NCBI GenBank assembly: GCA_965205155.1
Contig: OZ242033.1
Location: forward strand, 2,299,572 to 2,363,571
Source: Candidatus Aldehydirespirator sp.
Lineage (GTDB): Bacteria; Actinomycetota; Acidimicrobiia; Acidimicrobiales; Aldehydirespiratoraceae
Length of the DNA stretch: 64,000 nucleotides
Direction: 5' to 3'
Positions 3,805 to 49,000 of the stretch are shown piece by piece; the first letter of the stretch is position 1; each line of letters starts with the position of its first letter. Made by a program: the position numbers and the translations under genes. Under the pieces are notes generated by a model, which was not told the origin of the DNA, did not search any database, and saw nothing but the letters and a program-made list of their open reading frames with translations.

Positions 3805-3858
3805 CGAAGCTACCCGTCGGGTGCGGCCGTCACGGCGCCGCGGCTCGGGGGCCGTGTT

Positions 3859-3907
3859 TCCCGCTCTTGTTCGCTGCGCTCACGGGCCGCTCGGGCCACG
3901 GCCTCGC
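3859..3907 (-). repeat. Dispersed ~50-nt core repeat, copy A (sense on minus strand)
   Basis: The reverse complement reads GCGAGGCCGTGGCCCGAGCGGCCCGTGAGCGCAGCGAACAAGAGCGGGA, near-identical to the copies at 9743, 12117, 21399, 21451 and 25452. Confidence 0.9.
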
Positions 3908-3933
3908 TCAGAGTCTCGCGAGACACACATGAA

Positions 3934-4305
3934 CTAGCGCCCGCCCGCTCGGCCTCTGAGCCGGTGGCGGTTGGCCGCGATGAGGGCGTAGGCCGGACGC
4001 GCCAGCCAGCACAGCGGAGGGTGGATGATCAACAGTCCGGCCGCGGCCCAGATCCCACCGGCCGCGACCAGGGATCGCCCGATCGCCTCGGCGCCGCGTG
4101 ACCGCCGTGTGCCGCTGCCGCGGTCGTCGATCCACCACACCGCGGCCCGTACGTCAGGCTCGGATAGGCCCAGCCGGTCCAGTTGCAGCGACTGCCACGG
4201 CTCGACCCGGGCATCGGCGGGCAGGTGGGCCTCGATCCAGCGAGCCGACCGGATGCAGAAGCCACACTCGCCGTCGTAGACCAGCAGCACGCCTCCATTC
4301 TGCAT
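3934..4305 (-). CDS. Thiol-disulfide oxidoreductase DCC family protein (DUF393)
   Basis: This is the C-terminal 123 aa of track ORF 3934..5673, starting at ATG 4305: MQNGGVLLVYDGECGFCIRSARWI, the family's DGxCxxC motif. The rest of that 579-aa ORF is antisense to ychF. Confidence 0.75.
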   Translation of the reverse strand: MQNGGVLLVYDGECGFCIRSARWIEAHLPADARVEPWQSLQLDRLGLSEPDVRAAVWWIDDRGSGTRRSRGAEAIGRSLVAAGGIWAAAGLLIIHPPLCWLARPAYALIAANRHRLRGRAGGR

Positions 4306-4403
4306 GCACACGTCCCGCCTGAAACGGAATTGGCCGCGGTGGGTGCCCGTTTGGGCGTTCTCGGCTGCCAATTCCTGTAGGTCCGGCGGTAGCCTGTTTC
4401 GCC

Positions 4404-5622: not shown

Positions 5623-5705
5623 GAGGCCGATGCGGACCGTCCCCTGACTGCGTGACTGTGGTTGAGCGGCCACGGCTGCTGACGTACCCGCACTTTCTCA
5701 TTGCG

Positions 5706-6677
5706 GTGCCCGCCAGCAACTGGCTAGGCTCGCGATTCGTGCCCGTTGCCTCCGATGTCGGGCTGCTCACCGAACTTGAGCCCAGCGTCGAGAGACTCTA
5801 TGAGCGGCACCTTCGACAGACCAAGGAGTGGCATCCCCACGTGCTCGTGCCTTGGAGCCGGGGCGAGGACTTCCCGGCTGACTACGAATGGAGCCCCGAG
5901 GAGGCGGGGCTCAGCGCCGAGGCCCGTAGCGCGCTGTTCGTCAACGTCCTGACGGAGGACAACCTGCCCTACTACTTCCGGGACATTGAGCGCATGTTCG
6001 GCCGCGAGGGCGCCTGGGGCCATTGGGTGAGGCGTTGGACCGCCGAGGAGGGCCGTCACGGGCAGGTGATACACGACTACCTCGCCGTCACCCGGTCCGT
6101 CGATCCCGTCAGTCTCGAGAGGGCGCGCATGGCCCAGGTGCAGTGCGGGCGGGTTCCCGAGCCGCCCAATGCGCTGGAGGGTCTCGCCTATGTAGCCCTA
6201 CAGGAGTTGGCCACCCGCATCTCGCACTTCAACACCGGGCGGCACATCGACGACCCGGCCGGCAGGGCCATCATGCGCCGGGTGTCCTTCGACGAGAACC
6301 TCCATTTTCTCTTCTATCGCGACGCGATGGGCGCTGCGCTCAAGCTGGAGCCGTCCCAAGCGGTAGTGGCTATCGCCAACCAGGTGAAGCGCTTCGCGAT
6401 GCCGGGTGTGGGAATAACCGACTTCGATGCACACGCCCGCACGATTGCTGAGGCAGGCATCTACGACATGGCCATCCATCACGATCAGATTCTTCAGCCA
6501 GTCGTGATGCGGGACTGGAACCTTCCGAGCATCGCCGGCCTTTCGGGGGTGGCCGAGGCGGCCCGGGACAGGCTCATGAAGTTGATAGACCGGATCGGCC
6601 GCGTCGGTCGGCTCATGTTGGAGCGCCGCTCTGAGCGCCGATCGCGCCGGGAGGAGCAAGGGGTCGGGGAGTTCTAG
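5706..6677 (+). CDS. Acyl-ACP desaturase (DesA-like di-iron fatty acid desaturase)
   Basis: TEDNLPYYF, WTAEEGRHG and QELATRISH (EXXH di-iron motifs) lie within ORF 5439..6677. The start is uncertain (GTG 5706 or GTG 5739). The upstream part of the track ORF overlaps ychF. Confidence 0.85.
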   Translation: MPASNWLGSRFVPVASDVGLLTELEPSVERLYERHLRQTKEWHPHVLVPWSRGEDFPADYEWSPEEAGLSAEARSALFVNVLTEDNLPYYFRDIERMFGREGAWGHWVRRWTAEEGRHGQVIHDYLAVTRSVDPVSLERARMAQVQCGRVPEPPNALEGLAYVALQELATRISHFNTGRHIDDPAGRAIMRRVSFDENLHFLFYRDAMGAALKLEPSQAVVAIANQVKRFAMPGVGITDFDAHARTIAEAGIYDMAIHHDQILQPVVMRDWNLPSIAGLSGVAEAARDRLMKLIDRIGRVGRLMLERRSERRSRREEQGVGEF

Positions 6678-7120: not shown

Positions 7121-7941
7121 TGGTCCTGGTCGGCACGCCGATCGGCAACCTCGGCGATCTCAGCCCGAGGGCGGTGGAGGCTCTTGCTTCCGCCGACCTG
7201 GTGTGCTGCGAGGACACGCGGCGCACTGGGCGGCTGCTGGAGCATGCGGGGCTGCAAGGAGTGCGGCTCCGGCGCGTCGACGAGCACACCGAGGCCGCGG
7301 CGGTCACCCACGTCCTCGAGCTGCTCACCGGCGGAGCCTTGGTTGCGGTGGTGACCGATGCCGGCATGCCCGCGCTGACCGATCCCGGCGGCCGGTTGGT
7401 AGCCGCGTCCGCGGAGGCGGGCCACAACGTGACCGTGGTGCCCGGCCCTTCCGCCGGTCTGGCCGCCCTGGCCATCAGCGGTCTTCCCGCAGGCCGCTTC
7501 TGCTTCGAGGGTTTCCTGCCCCGCAAGGGCAAGGCCCGTGCCGAGCGCCTGGAGCAGATAGCGCGGGAGGGGCGCACGACGGTGGTGTACGAGTCACCGC
7601 ATCGCTTGCGGTCCAGCCTCGAAGACCTGTCCGAGGCGTGCGGGCCGTCCCGCCGGGGCGTTGTGGCCCGTGAGCTCACCAAGATGCACGAGGAGGTCGC
7701 GAGAGGGAGCCTGGCCGACTTGTGCCAATGGGCCGCCGGCCCGGTGAAGGGAGAGGTGGTGATCGTGATCGAGGGAGCCGGAGAGGACATGGCCGCCGCG
7801 ACCGATGATGAGCTCAGGGTCGCAGTCGAGTCTCTCGTGGCCGGCGGAGCGAGCCGCAAGGATGCAGTCGAGGTGACCGCGGCCGCTCATGGGGTGTCGC
7901 GCCGTCAGCTCTACAACCTCGTCGTCAACACCGAGGACTGA
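7072..7941 (+). CDS. rsmI: 16S rRNA (cytidine1402-2'-O)-methyltransferase
   Basis: LVLVGTPIGNLGDLSPRAVEALASADLVCCEDTRRTGRLL, FCFEGFLPRKG and VYESPHR. ATG 7072 overlaps the DUF192 stop (ATGA). Alternative start ATG 7108. Confidence 0.9.
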   Translation: MTGSQPGSAPPAMTGSLVLVGTPIGNLGDLSPRAVEALASADLVCCEDTRRTGRLLEHAGLQGVRLRRVDEHTEAAAVTHVLELLTGGALVAVVTDAGMPALTDPGGRLVAASAEAGHNVTVVPGPSAGLAALAISGLPAGRFCFEGFLPRKGKARAERLEQIAREGRTTVVYESPHRLRSSLEDLSEACGPSRRGVVARELTKMHEEVARGSLADLCQWAAGPVKGEVVIVIEGAGEDMAAATDDELRVAVESLVAGGASRKDAVEVTAAAHGVSRRQLYNLVVNTED

Positions 7942-8027: not shown

Positions 8028-9722
8028 ATGTGGCCCCTTATGGCGGTGCCGGTACTGGTCGCAGTGGCGTGGCCCTACGCGTCCGGAAGTCGCCACCTCG
8101 GCCACCTCGCCGGGGCCTACCTGCCGGCCGACATCTACGCCCGGTACCAGCGGTTGGCCGGCAACGACGTTCTGATGGTGAGCGGGTCGGACGTCCATGG
8201 CACGCCCATCACCGTGCGTGCCGATGCCGAGGGGGTCACTCCGTCCGAGATCGTGGAGCGTTACCACTCCGAGTTCTGCTGCCAGTGGGAGATGCTCGGG
8301 ATCTCGTGGGACCTGTACACCACCACCGGAACCGCCAACCACGCCGAGGTGACCCAGGACATGTTCCTGGTGCAGCTTCAGAACGGCTACATCGACAAGC
8401 GGGTCTCCGAGCAGTTCTACGACCCCGTGGGCGAACGGTTCCTGCCCGATCGCTACATCGAGGGCACCTGCCCGCGCTGCGACTACGGCGCGGCCCGCGG
8501 GGACCAGTGTGAGCACTGCGGCAGCACGCTGGATGCCACCGATCTGATCGAGCCGAGGTCCAAGATCAGCGGTGCAGTGCCGGAACTGCGTACGACCGAG
8601 CACTTCTACTTCCGCTACTCGGACTTCACCGGGAAGGTCGATGCCTGGCTCAGGACCCGCCAGGGATGGCGACCGCACGTGCTCAACTCCAGCTTCGGCT
8701 GGACCAACGAGGGTCTCCAGGACCGGGCGATAACCCGTGACCTCGACTGGGGAGTGGAACTGCCCGTCGACGACCTGGGGGAGGGCAAACGCATCTACGT
8801 GTGGTACGACGCGGTGATCGGCTACCTGTCGGCGTCCAAGGAATGGGCGGCCCGCCGTGGTGATCCCGACGCCTGGAAGCGCTGGTGGCACAACGACGAC
8901 GCACACCACGCCTACTTCATCGGGAAGGACAACATCCCGTTCCACGCCATGCTCTGGCCGGCCCAGCTGATGGGCTACGGCGGCCTGCACTTGCCCGACA
9001 ACGTTCCCGCGAACCAGTACGTGACTTTCTCCGGGGCGAAGATGGCCGCGGGCCGGGGCGTCGGCCTGACCATCGGTGCGGGCCTCAGCCTCTTCGAGCC
9101 CGACGCTCTGCGCTACGCGCTCGCCGCGGCCCTGCCCGAGCACGCCGACACCGAGGTCTCCATCGAGGAGATCGCCCGGCGGATCAACGACGAGTTGGTC
9201 GCCACATGGGGCAACCTCGTGAACCGGGTGCTGTCGTTGGCCCAGTCGGCGCTGGGGGGCGTGGTTCCGGAGGTCGGCCATCGGGACCCCTCCGACACCG
9301 ACCTGCTGTCCGCCACCGACGACGCCCTGCGCGAGGAGGCCGACTGCATCGAGCGGGTGGAGCTGCGGGCCGGCCTCCGCCGCGCCATGGAGGCCGCCGC
9401 CAGGGTGAACGCCTATCTCAACTCGAATGAGCCGTGGAAGCTGGCCTCGGCGGATCCGGACCGTGCCGCGGCGGTGCTGGTGACCGCGCTGGAGGCGATG
9501 GCCGGAGTGCGCACGGGCCTGGCCCCGTACCTGCCGTTCTCGACCGAGGCACTCGACGACCTGTTCGGTCCGGTCGAGAACTGGGAACGCCCCGACCTGC
9601 CGCCGGGCACAGCGGTTCCCAAGCCTGTGCCGCTGTTCGCCAAGGTGGACCTGGACGCCATCGATCTCGCCGCCGGCGGGGACGGGGCCCCAGAGGCCGA
9701 GCGGATAGGCGGCGATTCGTGA
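8028..9722 (+). CDS. metG: Methionine--tRNA ligase
   Basis: WPYASGSRHLGHLAG (HIGH-type motif), CPRCDYGAARGDQCEHCG zinc knuckle, GAKMAAGRG (KMSKS position), and an anticodon-binding C-terminal half. Confidence 0.95.
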   Translation: MWPLMAVPVLVAVAWPYASGSRHLGHLAGAYLPADIYARYQRLAGNDVLMVSGSDVHGTPITVRADAEGVTPSEIVERYHSEFCCQWEMLGISWDLYTTTGTANHAEVTQDMFLVQLQNGYIDKRVSEQFYDPVGERFLPDRYIEGTCPRCDYGAARGDQCEHCGSTLDATDLIEPRSKISGAVPELRTTEHFYFRYSDFTGKVDAWLRTRQGWRPHVLNSSFGWTNEGLQDRAITRDLDWGVELPVDDLGEGKRIYVWYDAVIGYLSASKEWAARRGDPDAWKRWWHNDDAHHAYFIGKDNIPFHAMLWPAQLMGYGGLHLPDNVPANQYVTFSGAKMAAGRGVGLTIGAGLSLFEPDALRYALAAALPEHADTEVSIEEIARRINDELVATWGNLVNRVLSLAQSALGGVVPEVGHRDPSDTDLLSATDDALREEADCIERVELRAGLRRAMEAAARVNAYLNSNEPWKLASADPDRAAAVLVTALEAMAGVRTGLAPYLPFSTEALDDLFGPVENWERPDLPPGTAVPKPVPLFAKVDLDAIDLAAGGDGAPEAERIGGDS

Positions 9723-9742
9723 TGATCATGGCGAGGCACATA

Positions 9743-9792
9743 GCGAGGCCGTGGCCCGAGCGGCCCGTGAGCGAAGCGAACAAGAGCGGGAG
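9743..9792 (+). repeat. Dispersed ~50-nt core repeat, copy B
   Basis: GCGAGGCCGTGGCCCGAGCGGCCCGTGAGCGAAGCGAACAAGAGCGGGAG, between the metG stop and the tatD start. Confidence 0.9.
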
Positions 9793-9846
9793 TGACACCG
9801 CTGCGGCACGACGGGCTATCGCCTGCCCGCGGATGGCCTGAGGGGC

Positions 9847-10614
9847 GTGGTTGCTGTGGCCTGGGCCGATCACCATTGCCACCTCCCCGCCGGGGAAGCG
9901 GCCGCCGCGGTGATCGCCGACGCACGGGCCGCAGGCGTCGAGGTGCTGATCAATGTCGGAACCGATGTGGAGGACTCGGGCAGAGCCCTTGCCGTGGCCG
10001 AGGCCCACGACGGGGTGTGGGCCACCGCGGGGGTCCATCCCCACGAGGCGTCGAGCGGCATCGACGGGCTGGAGTCCTTGATCGGGCGGCGCGAGGTGGT
10101 GGCCGTGGGCGAGGCTGGACTCGACTACCACTACGACCACTCGCCGAGGCCCGTGCAGAGGCGGGTGTTCGCCGCGCAGGTCGAGCTGGCCAACCGCCAC
10201 GATCTGCCGCTCGTGGTCCATTCCCGGTCGGCGTGGGACGACACCCTCGCGGTGCTCGACCGTGAGGGAATGCCGTCCCGGACGGTGATGCACTGCTTCA
10301 CGGGCGGCCCCCATGAGGCCGAGGAGTGCCTGCGACGGGGCGCGGTCCTGTCGTTCTCGGGGATAGTCACGTTCCCCAAGGCTCCCGAAGTGCGCGACGC
10401 CGCCCGGGCCTGCCCGCTCGACCGCCTGCTGGTGGAGACCGACAGCCCGTACCTGGCTCCGGTACCCCATCGCGGCAGGAGGAACCGCCCCGCCCTCGTG
10501 GGCGTCGTGGGAGCGGCGGTGGCGGAGGCCAAGGGTCTCGACGTGACTGATGTGGAGCAGTCGACTTGGGCGACCACCCGAGCGTTCTACGGCCTCGATC
10601 GAGAGGTCGGCTGA
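9847..10614 (+). CDS. tatD: TatD family hydrolase
   Basis: WADHHCHL, AVGEAGLDYHYD, PLVVHSR, MHCFTG and LLVETDSPYLAPVPHRG are TatD metal-binding motifs. Confidence 0.9.
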   Translation: MVAVAWADHHCHLPAGEAAAAVIADARAAGVEVLINVGTDVEDSGRALAVAEAHDGVWATAGVHPHEASSGIDGLESLIGRREVVAVGEAGLDYHYDHSPRPVQRRVFAAQVELANRHDLPLVVHSRSAWDDTLAVLDREGMPSRTVMHCFTGGPHEAEECLRRGAVLSFSGIVTFPKAPEVRDAARACPLDRLLVETDSPYLAPVPHRGRRNRPALVGVVGAAVAEAKGLDVTDVEQSTWATTRAFYGLDREVG

Positions 10615-11280: not shown

Positions 11281-12144
11281 ATGGACCGTTTCGGTGTGGC
11301 GCCGCGCCGATCCTTCGGGCAACACTTCGTAGCGGATCCCAACACGGTCAGGCGGATTGCCCGGCTCAGCGGTGCGGGGCCGTCGGATCGCGTGCTGGAG
11401 ATCGGTGCCGGGCTGGGTTCGCTCACCCTCGCCCTGGCCGAGACCGGTGCGGCGGTACGGGCCGTGGAGGTCGACACCGGTCTTGCCGCAGCTCTGCGCG
11501 AGGTGGTCGCGGAGGCCGGAGCATCCGATGTCGAGGTGGTCGAAGGAGACGCTTCGACGCTGGACTTCGACGAGGTGCTGAGAGGCTCTGAGCGATGGAT
11601 GCTGGTGGCCAACCTGCCCTACAACATCGCCACGCCGCTGGTACTGGACCTGCTGCGCGATGCCGCTTCCGTCGAGACGATGGTGGTGATGGTGCAACGG
11701 GAGGCGGGAGAGCGACTCACCGCGCCGGCTGGATCGAGAGTTCGAGGCATACCCAGCGTTCTCGTGGAGAGGCGGGGTACGGCGCGGGTGGTGGGCAGGG
11801 TCGCGGCGTCGGTCTTCCGGCCCCGACCGAAGGTCGAGTCGGTCGTGGTCCGGATCGAGCGCCCCCCGCGTTCGGAGGGGCTGACGCTTCCGCCGGAGAC
11901 AGAGGCTCGCTTCGAGCTGCTTGTGCGGGCGGGGTTCGGTCAGCGCCGCAAGATGCTGCGCCGGTCGCTGGCCGGACTGGTCACCCCCGAGGGCTTCGCG
12001 AGTGCCGCGGTGGACCCGGCCAGCCGACCCGAGACGCTCACGTTGGCCCAGTGGGTCGACCTGGCCCGTGCCGCGGAGGCCGAGCCAATGGACCGCGGCC
12101 AGCCGACGGGGCGCGGGCGAGGCCGTGGCCCGAGCGGCCCGTGA
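11281..12144 (+). CDS. rsmA: 16S rRNA (adenine1518-N6/adenine1519-N6)-dimethyltransferase
   Basis: FGQHFVADPNTVRRI, LEIGAGLGSLTLAL and ANLPYNIATPL. The last residues GRGPSGP and the stop are supplied by repeat copy C. Confidence 0.92.
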   Translation: MDRFGVAPRRSFGQHFVADPNTVRRIARLSGAGPSDRVLEIGAGLGSLTLALAETGAAVRAVEVDTGLAAALREVVAEAGASDVEVVEGDASTLDFDEVLRGSERWMLVANLPYNIATPLVLDLLRDAASVETMVVMVQREAGERLTAPAGSRVRGIPSVLVERRGTARVVGRVAASVFRPRPKVESVVVRIERPPRSEGLTLPPETEARFELLVRAGFGQRRKMLRRSLAGLVTPEGFASAAVDPASRPETLTLAQWVDLARAAEAEPMDRGQPTGRGRGRGPSGP

Positions 12145-12166
12145 GCGAAGCGAACAAGAGCGGGAA
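12117..12166 (+). repeat. Dispersed ~50-nt core repeat, copy C (overlaps the rsmA 3' end and provides its TGA)
   Basis: GCGAGGCCGTGGCCCGAGCGGCCCGTGAGCGAAGCGAACAAGAGCGGGAA. The rsmA stop is the TGA inside CCCGTGAGCG (12142-12144). Confidence 0.9.
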
Positions 12167-12177
12167 TGACGTAGTGC

Positions 12178-16672: not shown

Positions 16673-17344
16673 ATGGCTATGAACCTGGTGAAGGCCGAGA
16701 TCGGCCGGGAGCAAGGCACCCGGCCCAGCCGGCGGCTGCGCCGGACCGGGCGCGTCCCCGCAGTGGTCTATGGCATGGGTGCAGAGCCGCTGACGGTGTC
16801 GGTGGACAAGACCGACCTGCGGGTCGCGCTGAACACCGAGGCCGGGCTGAACGCCCTGATAACGCTCGACGTCGAAGGCGGCCGGCAGCTGTCGATCGTC
16901 AAGGACCTCCAGCGCCACCCGGTCCGCCGCGACGTGCTCCACGTCGACTTCCTGCGGATAGATCCCGACCAGGAGGTGGAGGTCGACGTTCCTCTTATCC
17001 TCACCGGCGAGGCCAAGAAGGTCACCCAGGCCAGCGGGATGGTCGACCAGGTGATGCACCACCTGCCGGTGCTGGCCAAGCCGGCCGACATCCCCGTCGA
17101 GGTCACCGCGGACGTCAGCGACCTGGAGGTCGGATCCTCGCTGCGGGTGAGCGACATCGATCTGCCCGCGGGGGTAACGCCGGCCGGCGACGGCGACGCC
17201 ACCTTCGCGGTGGGCCTCATCACCCGCTCCACCAAGGAGTACCTGCGCCAGCTGAAGGCCGAGGAGGAGGCCGCGGAGGCGCTCATCGTCATGGGCGAGG
17301 CCGCCGATGACGAAGAGGCGGCCGAGGACGAAGAAGAGTCCTGA
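16673..17344 (+). CDS. rplY: 50S ribosomal protein L25/general stress protein Ctc
   Basis: RRLRRTGRVPAVVYG, LQRHPVRRDVLHVDFLRI and an acidic C-terminal tail. Start ATG 16673 or 16679. Confidence 0.9.
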   Translation: MAMNLVKAEIGREQGTRPSRRLRRTGRVPAVVYGMGAEPLTVSVDKTDLRVALNTEAGLNALITLDVEGGRQLSIVKDLQRHPVRRDVLHVDFLRIDPDQEVEVDVPLILTGEAKKVTQASGMVDQVMHHLPVLAKPADIPVEVTADVSDLEVGSSLRVSDIDLPAGVTPAGDGDATFAVGLITRSTKEYLRQLKAEEEAAEALIVMGEAADDEEAAEDEEES

Positions 17345-20900: not shown

Positions 20901-21471
20901 GCGGGGTGAGACGATCCCGGAGCCGCCCGAGGTGAGCATCGAGGTGCCCGTCGACGCTCACATCCCGGCCACCTACATCAGCCGGGAAGCGGCCCGCCTC
21001 GAGGCGTACCGCCGGCTGGCCGCAGTGACCGGGCACGCCGAGCTGGACGACATCCGGGCCGAGTGGACCGACCGGTTCGGCCCTGTTCCGGAGCCGGCCG
21101 AGTCACTGCTGTCCATCGGCAGGCTGCGAGTGGAGTGCCTTCTGGCCGGTGTCTCGGAAGTGGTGGTCACCCGCCGCGGCGGGAGTGCTCTGTCGGCGGA
21201 GCGCTTCGCGACGCGTCTGGCTCCGGTGGACCTGCCGGCCAGCCGCCGGGTGCGGCTTCGCCGGCTCCACGGGGACCGGGCCATCCTGAAGGAGGACTCC
21301 CGGGAACTGCACGTTCCCCTCCGAGCCGACGCAGGCCCGGTGATCGACCAGGTCGTCTCGCTGCTGACCGATGTGGTGGCAGCCGAGAGGCCGAGCTTGC
21401 GAGGCCCCGGGCCCGAGCGGCCCGTGAGCGGAGCGAGCAAGAGCGGGCAGCACGGCCCGAGCGGCCCGTGA
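17971..21471 (+). CDS. mfd: Transcription-repair coupling factor
   Basis: 1166 aa. [10 protein letters not shown] helicase motif [16 protein letters not shown], and the TRG motif region [14 protein letters not shown]. The last ~25 codons run through the tandem repeat copies D1/D2. Confidence 0.97.
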
Positions 21472-21497
21472 GCGGAGCGAACAGGAGCGGAAGTGAC
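21399..21497 (+). repeat. Dispersed core repeat, tandem pair D1 (21399-21449) + D2 (21451-21497)
   Basis: GCGAGGCCCCGGGCCCGAGCGGCCCGTGAGCGGAGCGAGCAAGAGCGGGCA followed by CACGGCCCGAGCGGCCCGTGAGCGGAGCGAACAGGAGCGGAAGTGAC. The mfd stop is the TGA of D2 (21469-21471). Confidence 0.9.
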
Positions 21498-21527
21498 GTG
21501 CCGGAGCAGCGATAGGGTTCAGACCTC

Positions 21528-22472
21528 GTGAGCCTCGTTCGCCCCATCGCAGCGGTCGGCGCCGCCGCGGCGACGGTCTTGATCCTGGCGACCGGCTGCG
21601 GCGCTTCCGCGGATGTGGCCGCGGAGGTCGGCGGGGTGGAGTACACGGTCGACGACCTGGACGACTACCTGGCCACCACGGATCCCGACAACGCCGCGAG
21701 GGCACCCCGCGAGGCGGCCGCCCTGTGGCTCAGCGACTGGGTGTTCTTCACGGCCGTGGAGCTGGAGCTGGCCGAGCGGGGGATGACCGTGTCCAACGAC
21801 CATGAGGCGCAGGCGGTCGCCGAGATGACCCAGGCGGACCCCTCCTTCGTGCCCGGTGCCGGCGGTGGCGACTTCGCCGTCCACCAGCGGGCCATCGTCC
21901 TTGCCGCGCTGGAGTGGGCCGAGCGCGAGGCGCCCGGCGCGCCGGTCGCCGGCCCGCTGCGCCATCTCTGCTCCAGGCACATCCTCGTTGAGTCGCAGGC
22001 GGAGGCGGAGGCGGTTCTGGCCCTCCTCGACGCGGGGCAGGAGTTCGGATTCCTGGCCATCGAGCTCTCGCTGGATCCGGGCAGTGGATCGTTGGGCGGG
22101 GATCTCGGTTGTGTGGTCGAGGGCTCCTTCGTGGCGCCCTTCGAGACGGCCGCCTACGCCGCCGGGCCCGGCGAGACCGTGGTGGCCGAGTCGCAGTTCG
22201 GCTTCCACGTGATCCAGGTGATCAGCTCGGGTCCGGCGACCCCCGAGAACCATCCCCAGCTCGACGCCGAACGGCTGGCTCTCATGGCCGAGGACGCCGA
22301 GCTGGCGGCAGCCGAGCGAGCCCAGAGCGCGGCCCAGGACGAGCGCCAGCAGTTGCTGGTCAACCTGCAGGAGACCGTCGTGCTGAGCTACGCACCTGAG
22401 GTGCGGATCGACGAGCGCTACGGGTACTGGGATCCCGAGCAGTTCCGGGTGGTCCTGGAGTCGCCCGGCTGA
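21528..22472 (+). CDS. Parvulin-type peptidylprolyl isomerase lipoprotein (PrsA/SurA-like)
   Basis: Lipobox VLILATGCG. PpiC domain SRHILVESQAEAEAVLALLDAGQEFGFLAIELSLDPGSGSLGGDLG...QFGFHVIQV. Confidence 0.8.
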   Translation: MSLVRPIAAVGAAAATVLILATGCGASADVAAEVGGVEYTVDDLDDYLATTDPDNAARAPREAAALWLSDWVFFTAVELELAERGMTVSNDHEAQAVAEMTQADPSFVPGAGGGDFAVHQRAIVLAALEWAEREAPGAPVAGPLRHLCSRHILVESQAEAEAVLALLDAGQEFGFLAIELSLDPGSGSLGGDLGCVVEGSFVAPFETAAYAAGPGETVVAESQFGFHVIQVISSGPATPENHPQLDAERLALMAEDAELAAAERAQSAAQDERQQLLVNLQETVVLSYAPEVRIDERYGYWDPEQFRVVLESPG

Positions 22473-25008: not shown

Positions 25009-25413
25009 GTGCCCGCCCATCGGTTCAGTGTCAAGGTCCGGTTCTATGAGCTCGACCCCTACGGCCATCTCAACCACTCCGCCTACATCCAGTTCTTCGA
25101 GACCGGACGGATCGAGCTGCTGGAGCAGGTCGGGATGGACCTGGAGTCCTTGGCGGCCCGCGGATACCGGTTCGTGGTTAATCGCATCCACACGTCGTTC
25201 GATCGTCCGGTGCACGCCGGCGACACGGTGACGGTCGAAACGGAGGTCGTGGAGATGAGGCGGGCCTCGTCGACTTGGCGCCAGCGTCTGGTGCGCGACG
25301 GTGAGGTGGTGGCCCGCCAGGAGCTGAGGTCCGCCATCACCGACAACGACGGCAAGCCGGTGCGGGCCCCCGAGTACTTGGCCGAGGCGCTGGCCCCCTA
25401 CTTCGTGAGATAG
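25009..25413 (+). CDS. Acyl-CoA thioesterase (4HBT/YbgC-like hotdog fold)
   Basis: VRFYELDPYGHLNHSAYIQFFETGRIELL is the typical 4HBT N-terminal catalytic region. 134 aa. Confidence 0.75.
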   Translation: MPAHRFSVKVRFYELDPYGHLNHSAYIQFFETGRIELLEQVGMDLESLAARGYRFVVNRIHTSFDRPVHAGDTVTVETEVVEMRRASSTWRQRLVRDGEVVARQELRSAITDNDGKPVRAPEYLAEALAPYFVR

Positions 25414-25451
25414 CGCGGGTAGGCACAAGCCTGTCGCGTTGCTAGGGGGTG

Positions 25452-25502
25452 TCTCCCGCTCTTGTTCGCTGCGCTCACGGGCCGCTCGGGCCACGGCCTC
25501 GC
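25452..25502 (-). repeat. Dispersed ~50-nt core repeat, copy E (inverted relative to flanking genes)
   Basis: The reverse complement reads GGCGAGGCCGTGGCCCGAGCGGCCCGTGAGCGCAGCGAACAAGAGCGGGAGA. The insert is flanked by 11-bp direct repeats GTGAGATAGCG at 25405 and 25545. Confidence 0.9.
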
Positions 25503-25567
25503 CCGTATGGGCCGGATTCGCGTACCTACTCGCTCGGCCTCTTGGTGAGATAGCGACGCACCGGAAT

Positions 25568-26509
25568 ATGCTCGGTCGGATGCCGGCTGTTGACCTGCGC
25601 TCCGTTTCGTGTGTCGAAGACGTATGGCAGGGACTTCGCGACAACGCCTACCTGCCCGACGAGGCCCTGGCCACTGCGGTGTACCTCGCCCTGCGCCTGC
25701 GCCGGCCGCTGCTGCTGGAGGGCGAGCCCGGCGTGGGCAAGACCGAGGTGGCCAAGGTGATCGCCGACTGGGGCGGCGGGCGGCTCATCCGGCTGCAGTG
25801 CTACGAGGGCATCGACGCCTCCCAGGCCGTCTACGAGTGGGACTACGCCCGCCAGCTGATGCACCTCCGGACGATGGAGGCCACCGGGAGGGCCCAGGGC
25901 GCCGACGAGGCCAGCCTCGCCGACGAGCTCTACAACGAGCGCTTCCTGGTGCGCCGGCCGCTGCTGGAGGCGATCGAGGCCGGCGACGGTCCTCCTCCCG
26001 TGCTGCTCGTCGACGAGGTCGACCGCTCCGACGACGAGTTCGAGGCCTTCCTGCTCGAGGTTCTGTCGGACTACTCGATAACCATCCCCGAGGTCGGCAC
26101 GTTCGTGGCCGTCGATCCGCCGGTGGTGGTCATCACCTCCAACCGCACCCGCGACGTGCACGACGCCCTGAAGCGGCGCTGCCTGTACCACTGGGTGTCT
26201 CACCCCGGCGCGCAGCGCGAGGCGGAGATCATCCGGCTGCGGGCACCGGAGGTGGCCGACACTCTGGCCCAGGAGGTGGCTCATGCCGCGGCCGCCATCC
26301 GCGACGTCGGCCTCTACAAGCCGCCCGGAGTGGCTGAGACCATCGACTGGGCCCGCGCCCTGAGCCTCCTCGGCGGAGCCAAGCTCGATCTGGCCAACGC
26401 GTCCGCCACCCTGGGCGCCCTGCTGAAGTACCGCGAGGACCGCGACCGGGTCATCGAGCACGACCTGGCTGCCATCGTGAACGAGGCTGCAGCCGCCCAC
26501 AGCACATGA
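25568..26509 (+). CDS. MoxR-family AAA+ ATPase (CoxD-like)
   Basis: LLLEGEPGVGKTEVAKVIA Walker A, VLLVDEVDR Walker B, ITSNRTRDVHDALKRRC. Start is ATG 25568 or 25580. TTG 25439 would read in frame through the inverted repeat. Confidence 0.9.
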   Translation: MLGRMPAVDLRSVSCVEDVWQGLRDNAYLPDEALATAVYLALRLRRPLLLEGEPGVGKTEVAKVIADWGGGRLIRLQCYEGIDASQAVYEWDYARQLMHLRTMEATGRAQGADEASLADELYNERFLVRRPLLEAIEAGDGPPPVLLVDEVDRSDDEFEAFLLEVLSDYSITIPEVGTFVAVDPPVVVITSNRTRDVHDALKRRCLYHWVSHPGAQREAEIIRLRAPEVADTLAQEVAHAAAAIRDVGLYKPPGVAETIDWARALSLLGGAKLDLANASATLGALLKYREDRDRVIEHDLAAIVNEAAAAHST

Positions 26510-40193: not shown

Positions 40194-40280
40194 GCCCGGG
40201 TGGCGCAACTGGCAGACGCGGCCCGCTTAAAACGGGCTGCCCTAACGGGCATGTGGGTTCGAGTCCCACCCCGGGCACCA
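40194..40280 (+). tRNA. tRNA-Leu (anticodon TAA), CCA encoded
   Basis: Acceptor GCCCGGG/CCCGGGC, anticodon arm GCCCG-CTTAAAA-CGGGC, long variable arm TGCCCTAACGGGCAT, T arm GTGGG-TTCGAGT-CCCAC, then ACCA. Confidence 0.9.
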
Positions 40281-43228: not shown

Positions 43229-43882
43229 ATGCAATGGGCCGAAGAGGCACCTGGCGCTAGCGGCTTGACCGCAACATCAGCCAAGAACCTCAGACCAGCA
43301 CGCCCACTGGCGGGCCAGCAGCCATCAAGGGCGACGGACAACCCGAGGCAGGCTCCGAAACAGCCCGAACGTGGCACGAGGATCAAGCTGTGGTCCTCCG
43401 ATCTCATGGCGTTACGCATCGAACTGCGACGTGCCCTAGTCGGGCGGGGCTTTGACGAGCAATCAATTGGCCGGACTGTCGCCCAGATGACGGCTGCATT
43501 CCCCGCCGCCTCCGTTGTGGGCTATGAGCCGCTGATCGATTCGATGACCTGCGACCCGGGCGACCGCCATGTGCTCGCGGCCGCGGTTCACGCCAAGGCC
43601 GGGGCCATCGTGACGTTCAACGACGTGGACTTTCCGCAATCGAGCACTCACCGTTACGGGATACAGGTGATGCGGCCGGACGACTTCCTGCTGGACTTGC
43701 TGGACCTCTCCTCGGCGGCTGTGCTTGATGAACGTGAGATGCAGGCCGCTGCGTACCAGAGAGAACCAATGGAACTACCCGGCCGTTGTCACGGCGCCTC
43801 GGCCCGGTCCACTCCCGCGGACGGAGGCTCCGGCTGCGGCACTTGCAGGACGCTCCAGTCGGTCCAGGCTCCGATCCGGTAA
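43229..43882 (+). pseudogene. Degenerate PIN-domain (PIN_3-like) toxin homologue without cognate antitoxin
   Basis: KLWSSDLMALRIELRRALVGRG...VVGYEPLIDSMTCDPGDRHVLAAAVHAKAGAIVTFNDVDFP matches the C-terminal two thirds of actinobacterial PIN_3 proteins as I recall them. The N-terminal acidic-residue region is replaced by low-complexity sequence (GLTATSAKNL...QPSRATDNPRQAPKQPERG). The 3' end overlaps the serpin gene antisense. Confidence 0.45.
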
Positions 43883-45738
43883 CGGCCGTCACCGGCGTCG
43901 GGCGCCGCCGCGGAGGCTGCTCTCCATCTGACGGTGGACAGCGCCGGAGCCGGCACCAGGAACGCGTCGATGTAGTCCTCGGGGTCCGGGGTTACCGCCT
44001 CCCACAGCCCGACGCCCTCCAGCTCGACGACCGTCCGGTCGCGGGTGTTGCCGTCTGCGATCTCGAACAGGATCCGGCCGCCGTCCGCGGCGGCGGTCAG
44101 CGCCGGCGCGTCGAACGCCGCGTCGGCATACACCAGCGGCACGGTGAGCTGCTGCGCCCAGTGGAGCCGCCCCAGCGGCCCGAGCTGCGAGTGCGTGCCC
44201 GTCGGAGGCTCCGGACCCGGCTGCGGAGCGTCCGAAGCAGCGGAGTTGCCGGGACGGGCTGTGTCCACCGGATACGAGACCGTCGGCGCGTCCGGGGCCT
44301 GTGAGGGGGCTCCCGGCTCTGTGGCCTCGGCGCTGTCGCGGTTCTCGGCCGGGTCTACCACCCGGCCCAGGAACAGCACAGCTCCGGTCGGCTGGTGGAC
44401 GATGGCCCACAGGAACGGCCGGTCAGCGACAACAGTGATATCAGGCAGGGGAGGGGCGGACTCCTGGAACGCCATGGCGGTGGCTGCGGCTGCCTCGGTG
44501 CCCTTCTCGTCGACTATGACCTTGGCCCCGTGGAGCGCCGCGGTGATGAAGATGCCCGGCGCGATGCCGTCGAACCCGGCGCCGGCGCAGAACCCCTGCG
44601 GGCACAGCCACTCGAACAGGTCGGTGGGCGGCAGGGTCTGCTCCCACTTGGGCATGGTGAGGTCGACGTAGCCGGCCTGGGCGGCGCTCGCCAGCGAGGT
44701 CAGCGCCGCTGCGTCGAGTGCCTCTTCGACGGCTGCGAGCCCGTCGCGGTCGCGAGGCACGACAATCCACATAGCCAGCCCGCCGTCGAGGTACGGCAGC
44801 TCGACCGCATCGGCGCCGTCCAGGCGGACATAGCGGCGCCAGAGGGGTTCGCTGTCGGTCATGAACGGCACCGTCACCGACCGGTCGCCGGTGGCGAAGT
44901 AGCCGCTGTGGGTGTGCCCGGCCAGGAACGGCTGGGCCCATGCCGCTTGCAGGTACACGGTGTTGACCAGGACCAGCCTCTGGTCCTGCACGGTGCCGCC
45001 GTCGACTATCACGGGGACCAGTCCCCGCGTGCTCTGTGCTACCCACCGGTTGACGGCCTCGGCCGCGGCGTCGCCGTCGGCAGTGTCGACCGGTTCGATG
45101 CCCGCCCCGTAGTGCGTGGAGGCGACCTCCAGGAACTCGGGCCGCATCGTGAAGCCATCGTCGGGGAACAGGCGGTTGGCCACCTCCAAGGTGGTGGTAT
45201 CCACTGAGGCCCCTGCCAGCGCGAGATCGACGGCGTTGGCGGCCTCGTGGACGCCAGTCTCGGGGTATCCGAAGATCGCGTCGAGAACGGCGGCGGAGTC
45301 CGCCGAAGCACCCGCCCGGCTCATGCTGAACGCGATGCCGATGCTCATGGGGCTGGAGACTGCGTTGCCTTCGAGGTGGCGGTGGAAGCCCCATCCGGCT
45401 GCGTTGATCCCAGCGACCCAGGCGTCGACGGGTGCGTCGGGATCGGCGGGCAGCCGGTCAGCCACCGGCTCCAACACTGCCGTAGGAGTGCCAGGTTCAG
45501 TCGCTGGCTGGACCGTCTCTGGGGCCGGGACCGTCGTGGAGTTGTCAGGGCTGGCCGCTGGCTGGTCCGTGCCTGAGGCTGTCGTGGGCGCTCCGGGATC
45601 GGCTGCTGGCTGGTCGGGGTCCGGGCCCGCGACCGTGGTGGGAGTGTCGGAGTCTGGGGCTGAGCCTGGCGTGGGGGTGTCTCCGCACGCCGCTGCTATC
45701 AGGCACAGCGCGAGCAGGGATGCGATCAGCTTGGTCAT
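43789..45738 (-). CDS. Serpin-family protease inhibitor lipoprotein with ~200-aa C-terminal extension
   Basis: ATG 45738 (or 45744). MTKLIASLLALCLIAAACG lipobox and a Pro/Thr/Asp-rich linker. Serpin core NAVSSPMSIGIAFSM...VNRWVAQSTRGL...LVLVNTVYLQAAW. Hinge DEKGTEAAAATAMAF and ADRPFLWAIV. Confidence 0.88.
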   Translation of the reverse strand: MTKLIASLLALCLIAAACGDTPTPGSAPDSDTPTTVAGPDPDQPAADPGAPTTASGTDQPAASPDNSTTVPAPETVQPATEPGTPTAVLEPVADRLPADPDAPVDAWVAGINAAGWGFHRHLEGNAVSSPMSIGIAFSMSRAGASADSAAVLDAIFGYPETGVHEAANAVDLALAGASVDTTTLEVANRLFPDDGFTMRPEFLEVASTHYGAGIEPVDTADGDAAAEAVNRWVAQSTRGLVPVIVDGGTVQDQRLVLVNTVYLQAAWAQPFLAGHTHSGYFATGDRSVTVPFMTDSEPLWRRYVRLDGADAVELPYLDGGLAMWIVVPRDRDGLAAVEEALDAAALTSLASAAQAGYVDLTMPKWEQTLPPTDLFEWLCPQGFCAGAGFDGIAPGIFITAALHGAKVIVDEKGTEAAAATAMAFQESAPPLPDITVVADRPFLWAIVHQPTGAVLFLGRVVDPAENRDSAEATEPGAPSQAPDAPTVSYPVDTARPGNSAASDAPQPGPEPPTGTHSQLGPLGRLHWAQQLTVPLVYADAAFDAPALTAAADGGRILFEIADGNTRDRTVVELEGVGLWEAVTPDPEDYIDAFLVPAPALSTVRWRAASAAAPDAGDGRYRIGAWTDWSVLQVPQPEPPSAGVDRAEAP

Positions 45739-46051
45739 GCCCATTGGACGCTGCGGGCATCTCACAGGTTCCCAGCGATGGGAAATGTGGATCATCGGCG
45801 TGGCTCGTTGAGGCATTCCGTTCTCCTCTATGCGCTCGCGGCACGGCTATGGGCGGACTCTACGGATGCAGCGACGCCGAGCGGGAACTCCACGCAGCCC
45901 GCGCCGACGCGTCCGCAAGCCTGAGGGCACTAATCGAAGCAGTGTCGTGAGGCCACCCGCCCGCTACAAAGGACGCCACCAGCCCGCGGCCCAAGCTGCA
46001 TGGCCACCCGGTGTCAACGAAACCGGGTCAGCTCCAGATCGCTGTGGACGG

Positions 46052-49000
46052 TCATGGTGTCGATCGGGGGGTGGTGGCGGCCCATCGGATGGTGCTGGGC
46101 GACGCGAGGTGGTAGGGGCTCCAGCAGTCGACGGTGCCGTCGGTGCGCAGCCCGCAGGAGTGCTGCTCGCCGGTGGAGAAGCTGCGGAAGGTGCCTGCGA
46201 GGCGCACCATGTAGTCCGACGGGGTCCATCCCCAGCAGATGACGGCGCCGCCGGTGCGCAGCCCGCACGAGTGGCCCCGTCCGGTCGAAACGGCGCTGAA
46301 GGGTCCGGTGACCGTGAAGCCGTCGGGGTCGGCGCCTAGGCCGCCCCAGCATTCGATGTCGCCGCCGGCGGCGACCCCGCAGGTCTGCCACACGCCGGCG
46401 GAGACCGCGCTGAAGGAACCCTCGGGCGCGTCCAGTTGGTGGTCCCGGTTGCTGCCCCAGCACTCGACGGCGCCGTCGGTGCGCAGCCCGCAGGAGTGGT
46501 CCTCGCCTGCCGACACCGCGCTGAAGGCCCCGTCGGGCGCGTCGGCCTGGCCGGAGTAGTTCTTGCCCCAGCACTGCACTGTGCCGGCCGGGTCCAGCCC
46601 GCAGGTGTGGAACGCGCCCGCGGAGACGGCGGTGAAGGCTGCCGGCGGCGGGTCGGACTGCCCGTAGTTGTTGCCGCCGCGCAGGTTGGTCCAGCACTCG
46701 ACAGCGCCGATGGAGAGGATCCCGCAGGTGTGCACGTAGCCCGCGGAGACGGCGGTGAAGGCTGCCGGCGGCGGGCCGGTTCCCGCGGTGCGGTCATGCC
46801 AGCATTCGACGGCGCCGCCGGGGCGCAGCCCGCAGGTGTGGTCCCTGCCGGCCGAGACCGCGACGAACTCGCCGGGGGGCGGCTCGCTCGCCGCGGCGTC
46901 GTTGTGGCCCCAGCAGGACACGGACCCGTCGGCGTGGACCCCGCAGGCGATCGTGCTGCCGACCGACACCGTCGTGTAGCGGCCGGGGGCGGGGACGAAG
47001 CCGGGCCAGAAGTCGTTGATGGCTCCGAGGACGTCCTGGCCCCAGCAGATCACGGAGCGGTCTTCGCGGACCGCGCAGGAGTGGTACTCGCCGGCCGCGA
47101 CCGCCACGAACGTTCCCCGGGGGCTGTTGGCCTGGCCGTACTGGCCGTTGCCCCAGCATTCGACGGTCCCGCCCGCGGCGAGGCCGCATGCGTGCTCGTG
47201 GCCGGCCGACACGGCGGTGAACGCCCCGGCGGGCGGGTCGATGCCGGCGCGGGTGCCCCAGCACTCGACGGCGCCGCTGGGGCGCAGCCCGCAGGCGAGA
47301 TACCGGCCGGTGGAGATCTCGCTGAAGCGTCCCTGGGGCGCCTGGGCGTCCCAGATGGACGTGTCGCCCCAACACTCCGCGGTGGCGTCGCTGCGCAGCC
47401 CGCAGGTGTGCCAGGTCCCCGCCGACACCTGCGTGAAGGCCCCTTCCGGCGGGGCGAGCCGCCCGTCGTGGTCGTCGCCCCAGCATTCGACGGCGCCGCC
47501 GGCGCGCACTCCGCATGAGTGCCACCAGCCGGCCGACACCGACACGAACTCGCCCGAGGGTGCGAAGGCCTTTCCGTACTCGTTGTTCCCCCAGCACGCC
47601 ACCGTTCCGTCCGCGGACAGGCCGCAAGCGTGGGAATCGCCGGCGGAGACCGACTCGAAGCGGGTCACCTCGCGCACCGCGTACACGGCGACAGCCTCGC
47701 CCGAGTCGGCCACCGTCTTGGCGGCGGTTGCGCCGTCGTCGGGCTCGGCCGGGGGCTCGCCGGACCCCGCGCCGGGGTCCGGCGGCGTGAACCAGCGCAC
47801 GAACGGCGGCGCCGGCGTCCACGGGGGGCTCCAGCAGATCAGGGCGCCGCCGGTGCGAAGCCCGCAGGAGTGCCCGCCGCCCGCCGACACGGCGCTGAAG
47901 GCGCCCGCCGGTGCGTCGGCCTGGCCCTCGTCGTTGTTGCCCCAACACGTCAAGGTCTGGTCCGATCTCACGGCGCAGGTGTGGTCGGCCCCGGCGCTGA
48001 CCGACGCGAACGTGCCCGCCGGTGCGTCGCTCTGGCCGTGGTCGTTGTCGCCCCAGCAGTTCAGCGCGCCGTCAGCGTCGAGCGCGCACGAATGCTGCGA
48101 GCCCGTCACCACCGCGCTGAACGTGCCCGGCGGTGCGTCGCTCTGGCCGTGGTCGTTGTCGCCCCAGCATTCGACGGCGCCGCCGGGGCGCAGCCCGCAG
48201 CTGTGGAGGGCGCCCGCCGACACCGAGGCAAAGGCGCCCGCCGGTGCGTCGCTCTGGCCGTGGTCGTTGTTGCCCCAGCATTCGATGTCGCCGCCGGTGC
48301 GCAGCCCGCAGCTGTGGAGGCCGCCGGTCGACACCGAGGAGAAGGTGCCCGCGGGCGCGTCGGCCTGGCCCGTCTCGTTGTATCCCCAGCATTCGACGGT
48401 GGCGTCGGTGCGCAGCCCGCAGTGATGCCAGCCGCTGGAGGTCACCGCGCTGAAGGGACCCGCCGGAGGCTCGTCGAGGATGCCTGGGGGCGGTTCGCTG
48501 TCGTAGAGATCGATGTGGCCCCAGCATTCGACGGTGCCGTCGGGGCGCAGCCCGCAGGAGCGGTCCGATCCCGCTGACACCTCGGTGAAGGCGCCGTGGG
48601 GCGCAGCGACCCGCGCGAACAGCGTCGGGTCACCGCCCCAGCATTCCACGGTGCCGTCGGTGCGCAGCCCGCACGAGAAGAAGAGTCCGGTGGCCACCGC
48701 GGTGAACGCTCCCGCCGGCTCGTCGTCGAAGTCCCAGCATTCCACGGTGCGGTCGGTGCGCAGCCCGCAACTGTAGGTCGAGCCCGCGGAGACGTCGGTG
48801 AAGGCCCCCTCGGGCGGCTGGATCCCGTCGCCGCCGTCGCCCCAGTCGAAGAGGTCCCACTCGGAGTCTCCCCAACAGGCGATCGTCTCGTCGCTGCGCA
48901 GACCGCAGGAGTAGGCGGTGCCGGCAGAGACCCGGCTGAAGGCCCCGCCGGGCGGGTCGGCCTGGCCGTAGTCGTTGTTGCCCCAGCACTCGACGCCACC

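Follow-up and report, generated by a model that had tools for sequence, protein, structure and literature searches.

A small mobile repeat at the 3' ends of genes in Acidimicrobiia, and the short reading frames at its operon junctions

The window analysed here is a stretch of 64,000 nt from a Candidatus Aldehydirespirator genome (contig OZ242033.1, positions 2,299,572 to 2,363,571), and its subject is a short repeat whose core occurs six times in it, against an expectation of zero. Copy extents were taken from an nhmmer profile built on 42 full-length copies, and a search of the window with this profile found no copies beyond the six, which are called A, B, C, D1, D2 and E. Labelled loci from relatives that were used for comparison carry L-numbers; the syntenic ones were obtained through homologues of TatD, PPIase and YchF. 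An earlier note on this DNA had proposed that wherever the repeat lies between co-directional genes, short open reading frames (ORFs), linked by overlapping stop and start codons, connect the stop of the upstream gene with the start of the downstream one. This was compared with MIRUs, the interspersed repetitive units of mycobacteria, and taken to suggest a constraint preserving translational coupling.

Copy A (3850-3959, minus strand; profile positions 2-107) lies between the gene of a DCC1-like protein and the PHP gene, about 10 codons ahead of the ancestral stop of the former. It has a 5' arm, AGAGGCCGAGCGG (3957-3945), a long spacer and the core (3897-3861), and it lacks a 3' arm. The codons were read correctly in the earlier note. 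On the minus strand, the new DCC stop TAG 3936-3934 is followed, 3 nt later, by ATG 3930 in the element spacer, which opens MCVSRDSERGRGPSGP (mini-ORF 1, 3880-3930). This frame ends at the core TGA, which overlaps the core's own GTG 3883 and thereby the start of VSAANKSGKHGPRAAAP (mini-ORF 2, 3830-3883). The TGA of mini-ORF 2 in turn overlaps GTG 3833, the start of VTAAPDG (mini-ORF 3, 3810-3833), and GTG 3804 comes 5 nt past the last stop. A DCC1-like gene is indeed present upstream, but it covers only 3934-4371, and the 579-aa ORF is antisense to ychF.

The same junction is found without the repeat in L199 and L200, where the site is empty, while L201 has an orthologous copy consisting of the core only. 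In L199 and L200 the DCC protein ends in SRAAAP (CGG GCC GCG GCG CCA TGA). An ATG on this TGA (ATGA) opens an ORF of eight codons, MTACPDDR, which ends 10 nt before the PHP ATG; in L201 a GTGA is followed by eight codons, VSARAGHE. Thus, mini-ORF 3 and the GTGA at 3833, an RTGA overlap on the ancestral DCC stop, exist without the element; they predate it and are independent of it. In mini-ORF 2, the tail GPRAAAP with its TGA represents the former C-terminus of DCC, in the DCC frame, and the 103-nt insert some 10 codons before the old stop has shifted the frame of DCC. The short ORF between the two genes is in itself of interest. It has 7-8 codons and has been retained in three lineages, regardless of the repeat (window 3810-3833, minus; L199/L200 about 7405-7440, minus; L201 about 7200-7260, minus), always with RTGA on the DCC stop and an end 5-10 nt before the PHP start, and it shows an in-frame 3-nt indel between lineages. 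Judged from these sequences, it may be a genuine conserved coupling ORF.

Copy B (9690-9839, plus strand; profile positions 2-146) is of full length, with 5' arm, long spacer, core and 3' arm, and is inserted at the stop codon of metG, upstream of tatD. Here, too, the codons are as first described: TGA 9720-9722 overlaps GTG 9719, and the 40-aa ORF that begins there closes at 9841 (9719-9841). In L114, L197 and L200 the site is empty and the junction reads ...GGCC TGA GGGGGC GTG GTT GCT GTG GCC TGG, with the native metG stop 6 nt ahead of the first GTG and 15 nt from the annotated tatD start. The GGCC-TGAG target was duplicated in the window: at the 3' edge of copy B it is kept, as GGCC TGAG GGGC GTG, and on the 5' side it has decayed into GGCC CCAG. 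As a result the metG frame extends into the element by 10 codons and stops at TGA 9720-9722, and MetG has 560-564 aa in the window compared with 551-552 aa in relatives. Because the 3' edge holds the ancestral junction, the 40-aa ORF ends at the ancestral metG stop (9839-9841). The gaps of 5 nt that close the chains at copies A and B, to GTG 3804 and GTG 9847, do exist, but homology favours other starts: PHP probably begins at ATG 3798 and tatD at GTG 9856, and the gaps would then be 11 and 14 nt.

The partial copies D1 (21397-21451, plus strand) and D2 (21453-21520, plus strand) form a 44-nt tandem duplication between mfd and the PPIase gene. The native junction, seen in L195 and L196, is a GTGA in which the mfd stop and the PPIase GTG overlap (annotated at 10004 and 10001). 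The insertion took place about 14 codons upstream of this native stop and was duplicated in tandem. At present D1, the first unit, codes for the C-terminal tail of Mfd, and the core TGA of D2 (21469-21471) is the current mfd stop, 57 nt from the PPIase start. As reported before, this TGA overlaps GTG 21468, the GTG of the core, and the 15-aa ORF opened by it (21468-21515) closes at TAG 21513-21515. This TAG was considered as the ancestral mfd stop and rejected, as the ancestral stop is the TGA of the GTGA at the PPIase start (21528-21531, plus strand), a native 4-nt overlap; L195 and L196 already have the TAG within their native mfd tails, where it is out of frame. L194 has a single unit at this site, in which the core reads GCTGA and the GTG is lost, and mfd continues across it as far as a TAG located 12 nt ahead of the PPIase gene.

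The two remaining copies carry no chain. Copy C (12076-12172, plus strand, no 3' arm) lies between the convergent genes for rsmA and a Mo-cofactor dehydrogenase, which makes bridging impossible; L195 has an orthologous copy, and L194 and L196 have none. Copy E (25407-25544, minus strand) is of full length, inverted with respect to the flanking thioesterase (stop 25411-25413) and moxR genes, and flanked by direct repeats at 25401-25415 and 25541-25555, with 13 nt repeated. It had been described as fully open in the moxR frame from TTG 25439, and the ORF 25439-26509 is indeed open across the copy. However, MoxR has 308-313 aa in relatives, which by homology places the start at 25568. The extension from TTG 25439 is therefore spurious, and copy E lies in a 154-nt gap in which no ORF chain leads to this start. 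At the corresponding site of the "empty" relatives L195 and L196, the thioesterase-moxR gap (L195:13933-14005, L196:13958-14029) holds about 37 nt resembling the 5' arm plus a short spacer, inverted relative to copy E. In both loci the 3' end of the thioesterase gene has, in addition, been duplicated; this duplication is imperfect and older. It seems that site E has been used more than once.

Comparison with the insert-free junctions traces the bridging pieces nearest the downstream genes to ancestral sequence and shows that tight native junctions were loosened by the insertions. The NTGA links of the earlier note exist, but those at 3883 and 21468 are the GTGA internal to the repeat core, and that at 3833 is ancestral. 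When the gaps are shuffled with dinucleotides preserved, a complete chain (gaps of at most 12 nt) arises in 4.8% of the trials for A, 10.9% for B and 24% for D2. The chain pattern of the window is thus unusual compared with random sequence, and not unusual given the retained ancestral junctions. Coupling at the MIRU-type spacing of -4 is absent across the window copies, where the gaps are 5-14 nt.

The anatomy of the repeat was obtained from an alignment of 151 copies. It is a modular element of about 50-150 nt, built around a core of about 50 nt, GCGAGGCCGTGGCCCGAGCGGCCCGTGAGCGcAGCGAACAAGAGCGGGA. An optional 5' arm reads (T/C)NAG followed by AGGCCGAGCGGATAGGCG, and an optional 3' arm ...CACCTATCCGCGC..GCTCT(A/T)AG; the spacer comes in three size classes, and the 5' arm is missing from 25 copies. 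The 5' end of the element is fixed, and its 3' end is variable, falling after the core or after the 3' arm. Together the arms form an imperfect terminal inverted repeat (TIR) of about 24 nt, as seen when the 5' arm TAAGAGGCCGAGCGGATAGGCG is set against the reverse complement of the 3' arm, TTAGAGCGTGCGCGGATAGGTG; of arm positions 1-9, eight pair in 70-93% of the copies and the ninth in 61%. Relatives carry further members of this superfamily. A variant core, CCCTCAGGTCGC, has no GTGA and is placed exactly on the ychF stop at L199/L200:9074. Mini-elements consisting only of the TIRs and flanked by TAG also exist, one of them about 40 nt long (L002:6179-6225), and L197:5144-5280 holds a coreless 46-nt tandem array of 5' arms. 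Tandem copy number varies as well: the 44-nt period of D1/D2 corresponds to a single unit in L194, and further arrays have periods of 44-45 nt (L009, L071, L076), 94 nt (L086) and 138 nt (L082).

Scanning one genome per species with the exact core pattern gave more than 113 loci. Among the matches listed, all are from metagenome-assembled genomes (MAGs) of Acidimicrobiia, many of which bear the names of sponge-symbiont genera, Ca. Aldehydirespirator and Ca. Poriferisodalis being frequent, and the locus closest to the window is about 90% identical to it. Copy number is sharply lineage-dependent. L194, a close relative (89% PPIase identity), has seven cores in 21 kb, at L194:4990-5140 and 17062-17207 among others, including a triple array after the prs stop (prs-L25) and a copy on the moxR-VWA ATGA overlap, and L197-L200 have no cores in about 65 kb. 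A literature search for this repeat family found no description of it. The family is real and, as far as we could find, apparently undescribed; in kind it belongs with the small bacterial mobile repeats, that is, those like MITEs (miniature transposable elements with inverted repeats), MIRUs or Correia elements.

The repeat is mobile. All window copies, A to E, are insertion-polymorphic among syntenic relatives with 85-92% protein identity. In other loci, L105 differs from L065 by a clean insertion of 93 nt with TAG duplicated, and L071 from L107 with TA(G) duplicated. In copy B and at moxR-VWA in L194 the duplicated junction is about 8 nt, and direct repeats of 11-15 nt flank 6-8 of 129 copies, where the maximum in the controls is 10. 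The flanking direct repeats have no fixed length but range from 3 nt (TAG) to about 15 nt, as seen at copy E and in L098, L016, L067, L034 and L053. Insertions are limited to the last 10-14 codons or the stop of genes, and in 26 of 90 copies the stop of the upstream gene falls exactly on the 5' boundary. The inserts are not consistently in frame, measuring 103 nt in A, 149 nt in B and 147 nt in L194. The repeat would have spread by transposition, probably with a preference for TA- or stop-like targets. A comparison of L077 with the window as an empty site was discarded, as homology breaks directly after a tRNA-Leu gene and the comparison is not clean.

Conservation of the core must be read together with this mobility. 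In dispersed copies from several genera the core is nearly invariant even beyond the 27-nt search pattern. However, cores at orthologous sites, which were fetched by synteny and not by the core pattern, are 84-88% identical, and their flanking genes 78-91%. Core divergence at orthologous sites is thus about that of the flanking genes, and the core is not constrained any further where it sits; additional purifying selection on it is not seen at these sites, and the near-identity of dispersed cores is a matter of recent spread and ascertainment.

Orientation was counted over 128 independent sites. Between co-directional genes the element is sense at 49 sites and antisense at 19; 18 sites have convergent and 16 divergent flanks. 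The sense bias of 2.6:1 is significant (p = 3.6e-4), but it is a bias and not a rule. Antisense to copy A (window 3846-3863, plus strand) there is a weak resemblance to a terminator, in the form of a hairpin with CTCTTGTTCG behind it. If functional, it could explain the scarcity of antisense copies between co-directional genes.

For the family as a whole, genes were called with an iterated dicodon caller that reproduces Pfam-supported genes. A chain was defined in liberal terms, by each ORF starting at -1 to +12 nt of the previous stop, with the last stop at most 12 nt from the next gene start. Complete chains are found for 21 of 64 sense copies between co-directional genes (33%) and, equally, for 6 of 18 naturally inverted ones (33%), compared with 27 of 169 element-free gaps of 60-300 nt (16%) and about 10-15% of shuffled gaps. 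Consequently, the rule that chains occur wherever the repeat separates co-directional genes is broken not only by copy E but by about two thirds of the family, and chains show no orientation specificity. As the terminal links are ancestral and the native junctions were disrupted by the insertions, the proposed constraint to preserve coupling is not upheld either.

An NTGA end on the downstream start (-4) occurs in 11 of 65 sense and 4 of 18 inverted copies. A 4-nt overlap is seen in 19% of element-free co-directional pairs, and the downstream start is in an NTGA configuration in 32% of the element-bearing pairs; with 19-32% of starts of this kind anyway, the frequency of -4 ends in the family is about that expected. 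The core is open in five of its six frames, and the element is also rich in GTG. Stop triplets make up 1.3% of the window positions, at which rate a frame stays open over 45 codons with a probability of 0.55. Composition accounts for the open frames. There is one clear MIRU-like case with -4 spacing. At moxR-VWA in L194 the element landed on a native ATGA overlap and duplicated the junction, and the insert is in frame; its 41-codon ORF starts 24 nt past the moxR stop and ends as ATGA on the VWA start. A designed ORF in frame a of the long-spacer class was considered and rejected, since only about 9 of 45 copies have the start in the spacer and, in many, the frame is already closed shortly ahead of the core.

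We suggest that the six window copies are a small non-autonomous mobile repeat of the MITE/MIRU type and that the mini-ORF chains are mostly incidental by-products, an explanation that we regard as probable. The repeat would land at the 3' end of a gene or slightly within it, in many cases right on the stop codon, and duplicate a short target stretch of variable length. A GC-rich, stop-poor and GTG-rich insert would leave frames open, and its core would happen to supply one GTGA. The old junction, consisting of the ancestral stop, the C-terminal tail, the spacing of the ribosome-binding site and the start, would stay intact downstream, and a frame that survives the insert would for this reason terminate where the upstream gene formerly did. 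The ORFs themselves would then be under no selection.

Several observations weigh against such an origin. Flanking repeats of 3 to about 15 nt do not fit a single transposase with a fixed stagger, and no autonomous partner element was seen in about 1.4 Mb of loci, where no search was aimed at a transposase with AGAGGCCGAGCGGATAGG termini. Simple transposition also leaves the 2.6:1 sense bias unexplained. Further, element-bearing gaps have about twice the complete chains of element-free gaps (33% vs 16%). Native gaps exceed their in-silico flipped versions, with 31% vs 14% for sense and 33% vs 6% for inverted copies, whereas there is no such difference for element-free gaps (14-16% vs 13%). When only the element is flipped and starts are forced to lie downstream of it, the discordant pairs are 14 in favour of the native state and 3 against (p about 0.013). 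In a null model in which elements are swapped, the native count is 7 vs 3.5 at gaps of up to 5 nt (p 0.017) and 16 vs 10.5 at up to 20 nt (p<0.003); at up to 12 nt it is 8 vs 6.5 (p 0.26). The starts used in the family test come from the dicodon caller, which was validated only against Pfam and annotated relatives. Some mild selective filter for relay-competent insertions may have contributed to this excess, which is itself weak and parameter-dependent.

A reading in line with the earlier note is that the repeat was built, or filtered by selection, in such a way that translational coupling in operons is preserved: in a relay of termination and reinitiation at the mini-ORFs, ribosomes would be handed on from the stop of one gene to the start of the next, as proposed for MIRUs (PMC12548453, PMC3184786). 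Besides that precedent, it could draw on the chains at A, B and D2, on the small native excess over the flip and swap nulls, on the sense bias, on the L194 ORF that ends on the VWA start and on the larger share of NTGA starts in element-bearing pairs. We nevertheless find it unlikely. About two thirds of the copies between co-directional genes are chainless, inverted copies score as well as sense copies, and copy E fails. The terminal links were not supplied by the element, and the GTGA is lost at the orthologous L194 site and absent from the variant core. The 5' arm and the short spacer contain no start codon, so that copies placed on a stop codon cannot restart there, and no motif resembling a Shine-Dalgarno sequence is found 5-10 nt before the core GTG. 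Finally, the excess vanishes at the 12-nt setting of the swap test. A coupling function for the repeat is thus not demonstrated, and neither is maintenance of coupling shown by the evidence here.

Selection could also have acted on the insertions. The repeat would then persist in operons because an insertion duplicates the stop or the stop-start junction and the open frame lets ribosomes terminate there again, with only relay-competent insertions surviving in tightly coupled pairs; the core might in addition act in the transcript. We hold this to be rather improbable. If true, this would make the repeat an "operon-compatible" mobile element, comparable to MIRUs but independent of them and outside Mycobacterium.

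Some REP and Correia elements are known as sites of transcript stabilisation or processing. In a similar way, the core could be a functional cis element in the transcript or a protein-binding site, for example a stabiliser or processing site in 3' untranslated or intercistronic RNA, in which case the ORFs would be irrelevant and the sense bias would reflect a function at the RNA level. The nearly invariant core across several genera, the 49:19 orientation count, copies placed directly after stop codons and a GAGCGG motif that occurs three times in the element would agree with this. But copies were found by their core, so its conservation is partly ascertainment, and cores at orthologous sites diverge as fast as the flanking genes. 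RNA-level searches lend it no support. Rfam gives no match at the copies at the gathering threshold, nor for copy B at E-values up to 5; single copies do not fold more stably than shuffles (z-scores -0.6 to +1.5), and RNAalifold on 39 copies yields only invariant local pairs without compensatory changes. Covariation in the arm helix is weak (pairing in 74%, compared with 71% for permuted partners), and no promoter or terminator consensus was found on the sense strand of any copy. We therefore place little belief in this possibility. That the mini-ORFs encode functional small peptides is extremely improbable: one core frame (ARPWPERPVSAANKSG) has genome-typical codons and recurs in B and L194, but the frames differ between copies (two in A, frame a in B, inside mfd in D1), ORF lengths and ends differ at every site, and among the 45 long-spacer copies just 9 can begin the ARPWPERPVSAANKSG frame at the spacer position where it begins in B and L194.

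The small non-autonomous repeat favoured here can be compared with several known systems. For MIRUs (Supply et al. 1997; summaries in PMC3184786 and PMC12548453), insertion at start codons has been described, with an ORF coupled at -4 nt that ends as NTGA on the downstream start (PMC12548453). Shared with them are the small size (40-150 nt), a high GC content, the position inside actinobacterial operons, mostly in the orientation of the flanking genes, tandem copy-number variation, imperfect TIRs with short direct repeats that suggest transposition, and through-ORFs touching the ends of neighbouring genes. However, the repeat is from Acidimicrobiia and not Mycobacterium, and the likeness is one of architecture; the window copies do not follow the -4 rule, and the tandem unit of 44 nt is not a multiple of three. 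The MIRU analogy drawn in the earlier note is thus fair as a description and, in a few individual cases, as to the outcome; it does not show membership of the MIRU family.

Correia elements of Neisseria (CREE) and similar MITEs (PMC3184786) agree with the repeat in a length of about 100-150 nt, TIRs of about 25 nt, a TA-containing target duplication, many intergenic copies co-transcribed with their neighbours, insertion polymorphism between close relatives and internally deleted size classes. They differ in that the direct repeats here are 3 to about 15 nt and not a fixed TA, that the repeat is best conserved in its internal core and not at the termini, with many copies lacking one arm, and that its orientation bias is marked; also, no cognate transposase was seen in the loci, although none was specifically sought. 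REP, BIME and REPIN sequences are likewise short GC-rich extragenic repeats at gene 3' ends and between operon genes, sometimes clustered or in tandem, and are able to influence the mRNA upstream of them or how it is translated. The present core, however, has neither a palindromic unit of about 35 nt with a conserved head nor an inverted REP doublet, and its hairpin stability is not above that of shuffles, unlike the stable hairpin of REP/REPIN. Finally, Rickettsia palindromic elements (RPE; PMC3184786) and other repeats fused in frame resemble it in being absorbed into coding regions, where they replace or extend C-termini, as in the Mfd tail, the 10 codons added to MetG, the DCC tail and the L194 Mfd that reads through the whole element. 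Here the insertions lie in the last 10-14 codons or the stop and not in protein interiors, and they are not consistently in frame.

Some other features of the window were also observed. A 1338-aa protein (46052-50068, minus strand) has at least 18 RCC1 repeats with a DNA period of 111 nt, and adjoining it is the gene of a 675-aa serpin (43789-45816, minus strand); both are eukaryote-like. These genes lie in or beside a stretch of lower GC content (about 0.66) that starts after tRNA-Leu 40194-40280, at which homology to the closest relative, L077, breaks. This stretch may be a genomic island. Antisense inside a fatty-acid desaturase gene (5652-6677) there is an Rfam match to the small RNA ASdes (6048-6115, minus strand; 42.6 bits, gathering threshold 40). 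Such an antisense position of ASdes within a desaturase gene is known from mycobacteria.

For annotation, the repeat matters in that its copies rewrite C-termini, with 10 codons added to MetG and the Mfd and DCC tails replaced, and create spurious N-terminal extensions of moxR and small ORFs in these Acidimicrobiia MAGs. Its insertion polymorphism and tandem variation between close relatives make it a possible strain marker, as with the variable-number tandem repeats of MIRU typing (MIRU-VNTRs). Its repeated landing on the stops and NTGA overlaps of tightly coupled genes is a natural experiment on the uncoupling that operons tolerate.

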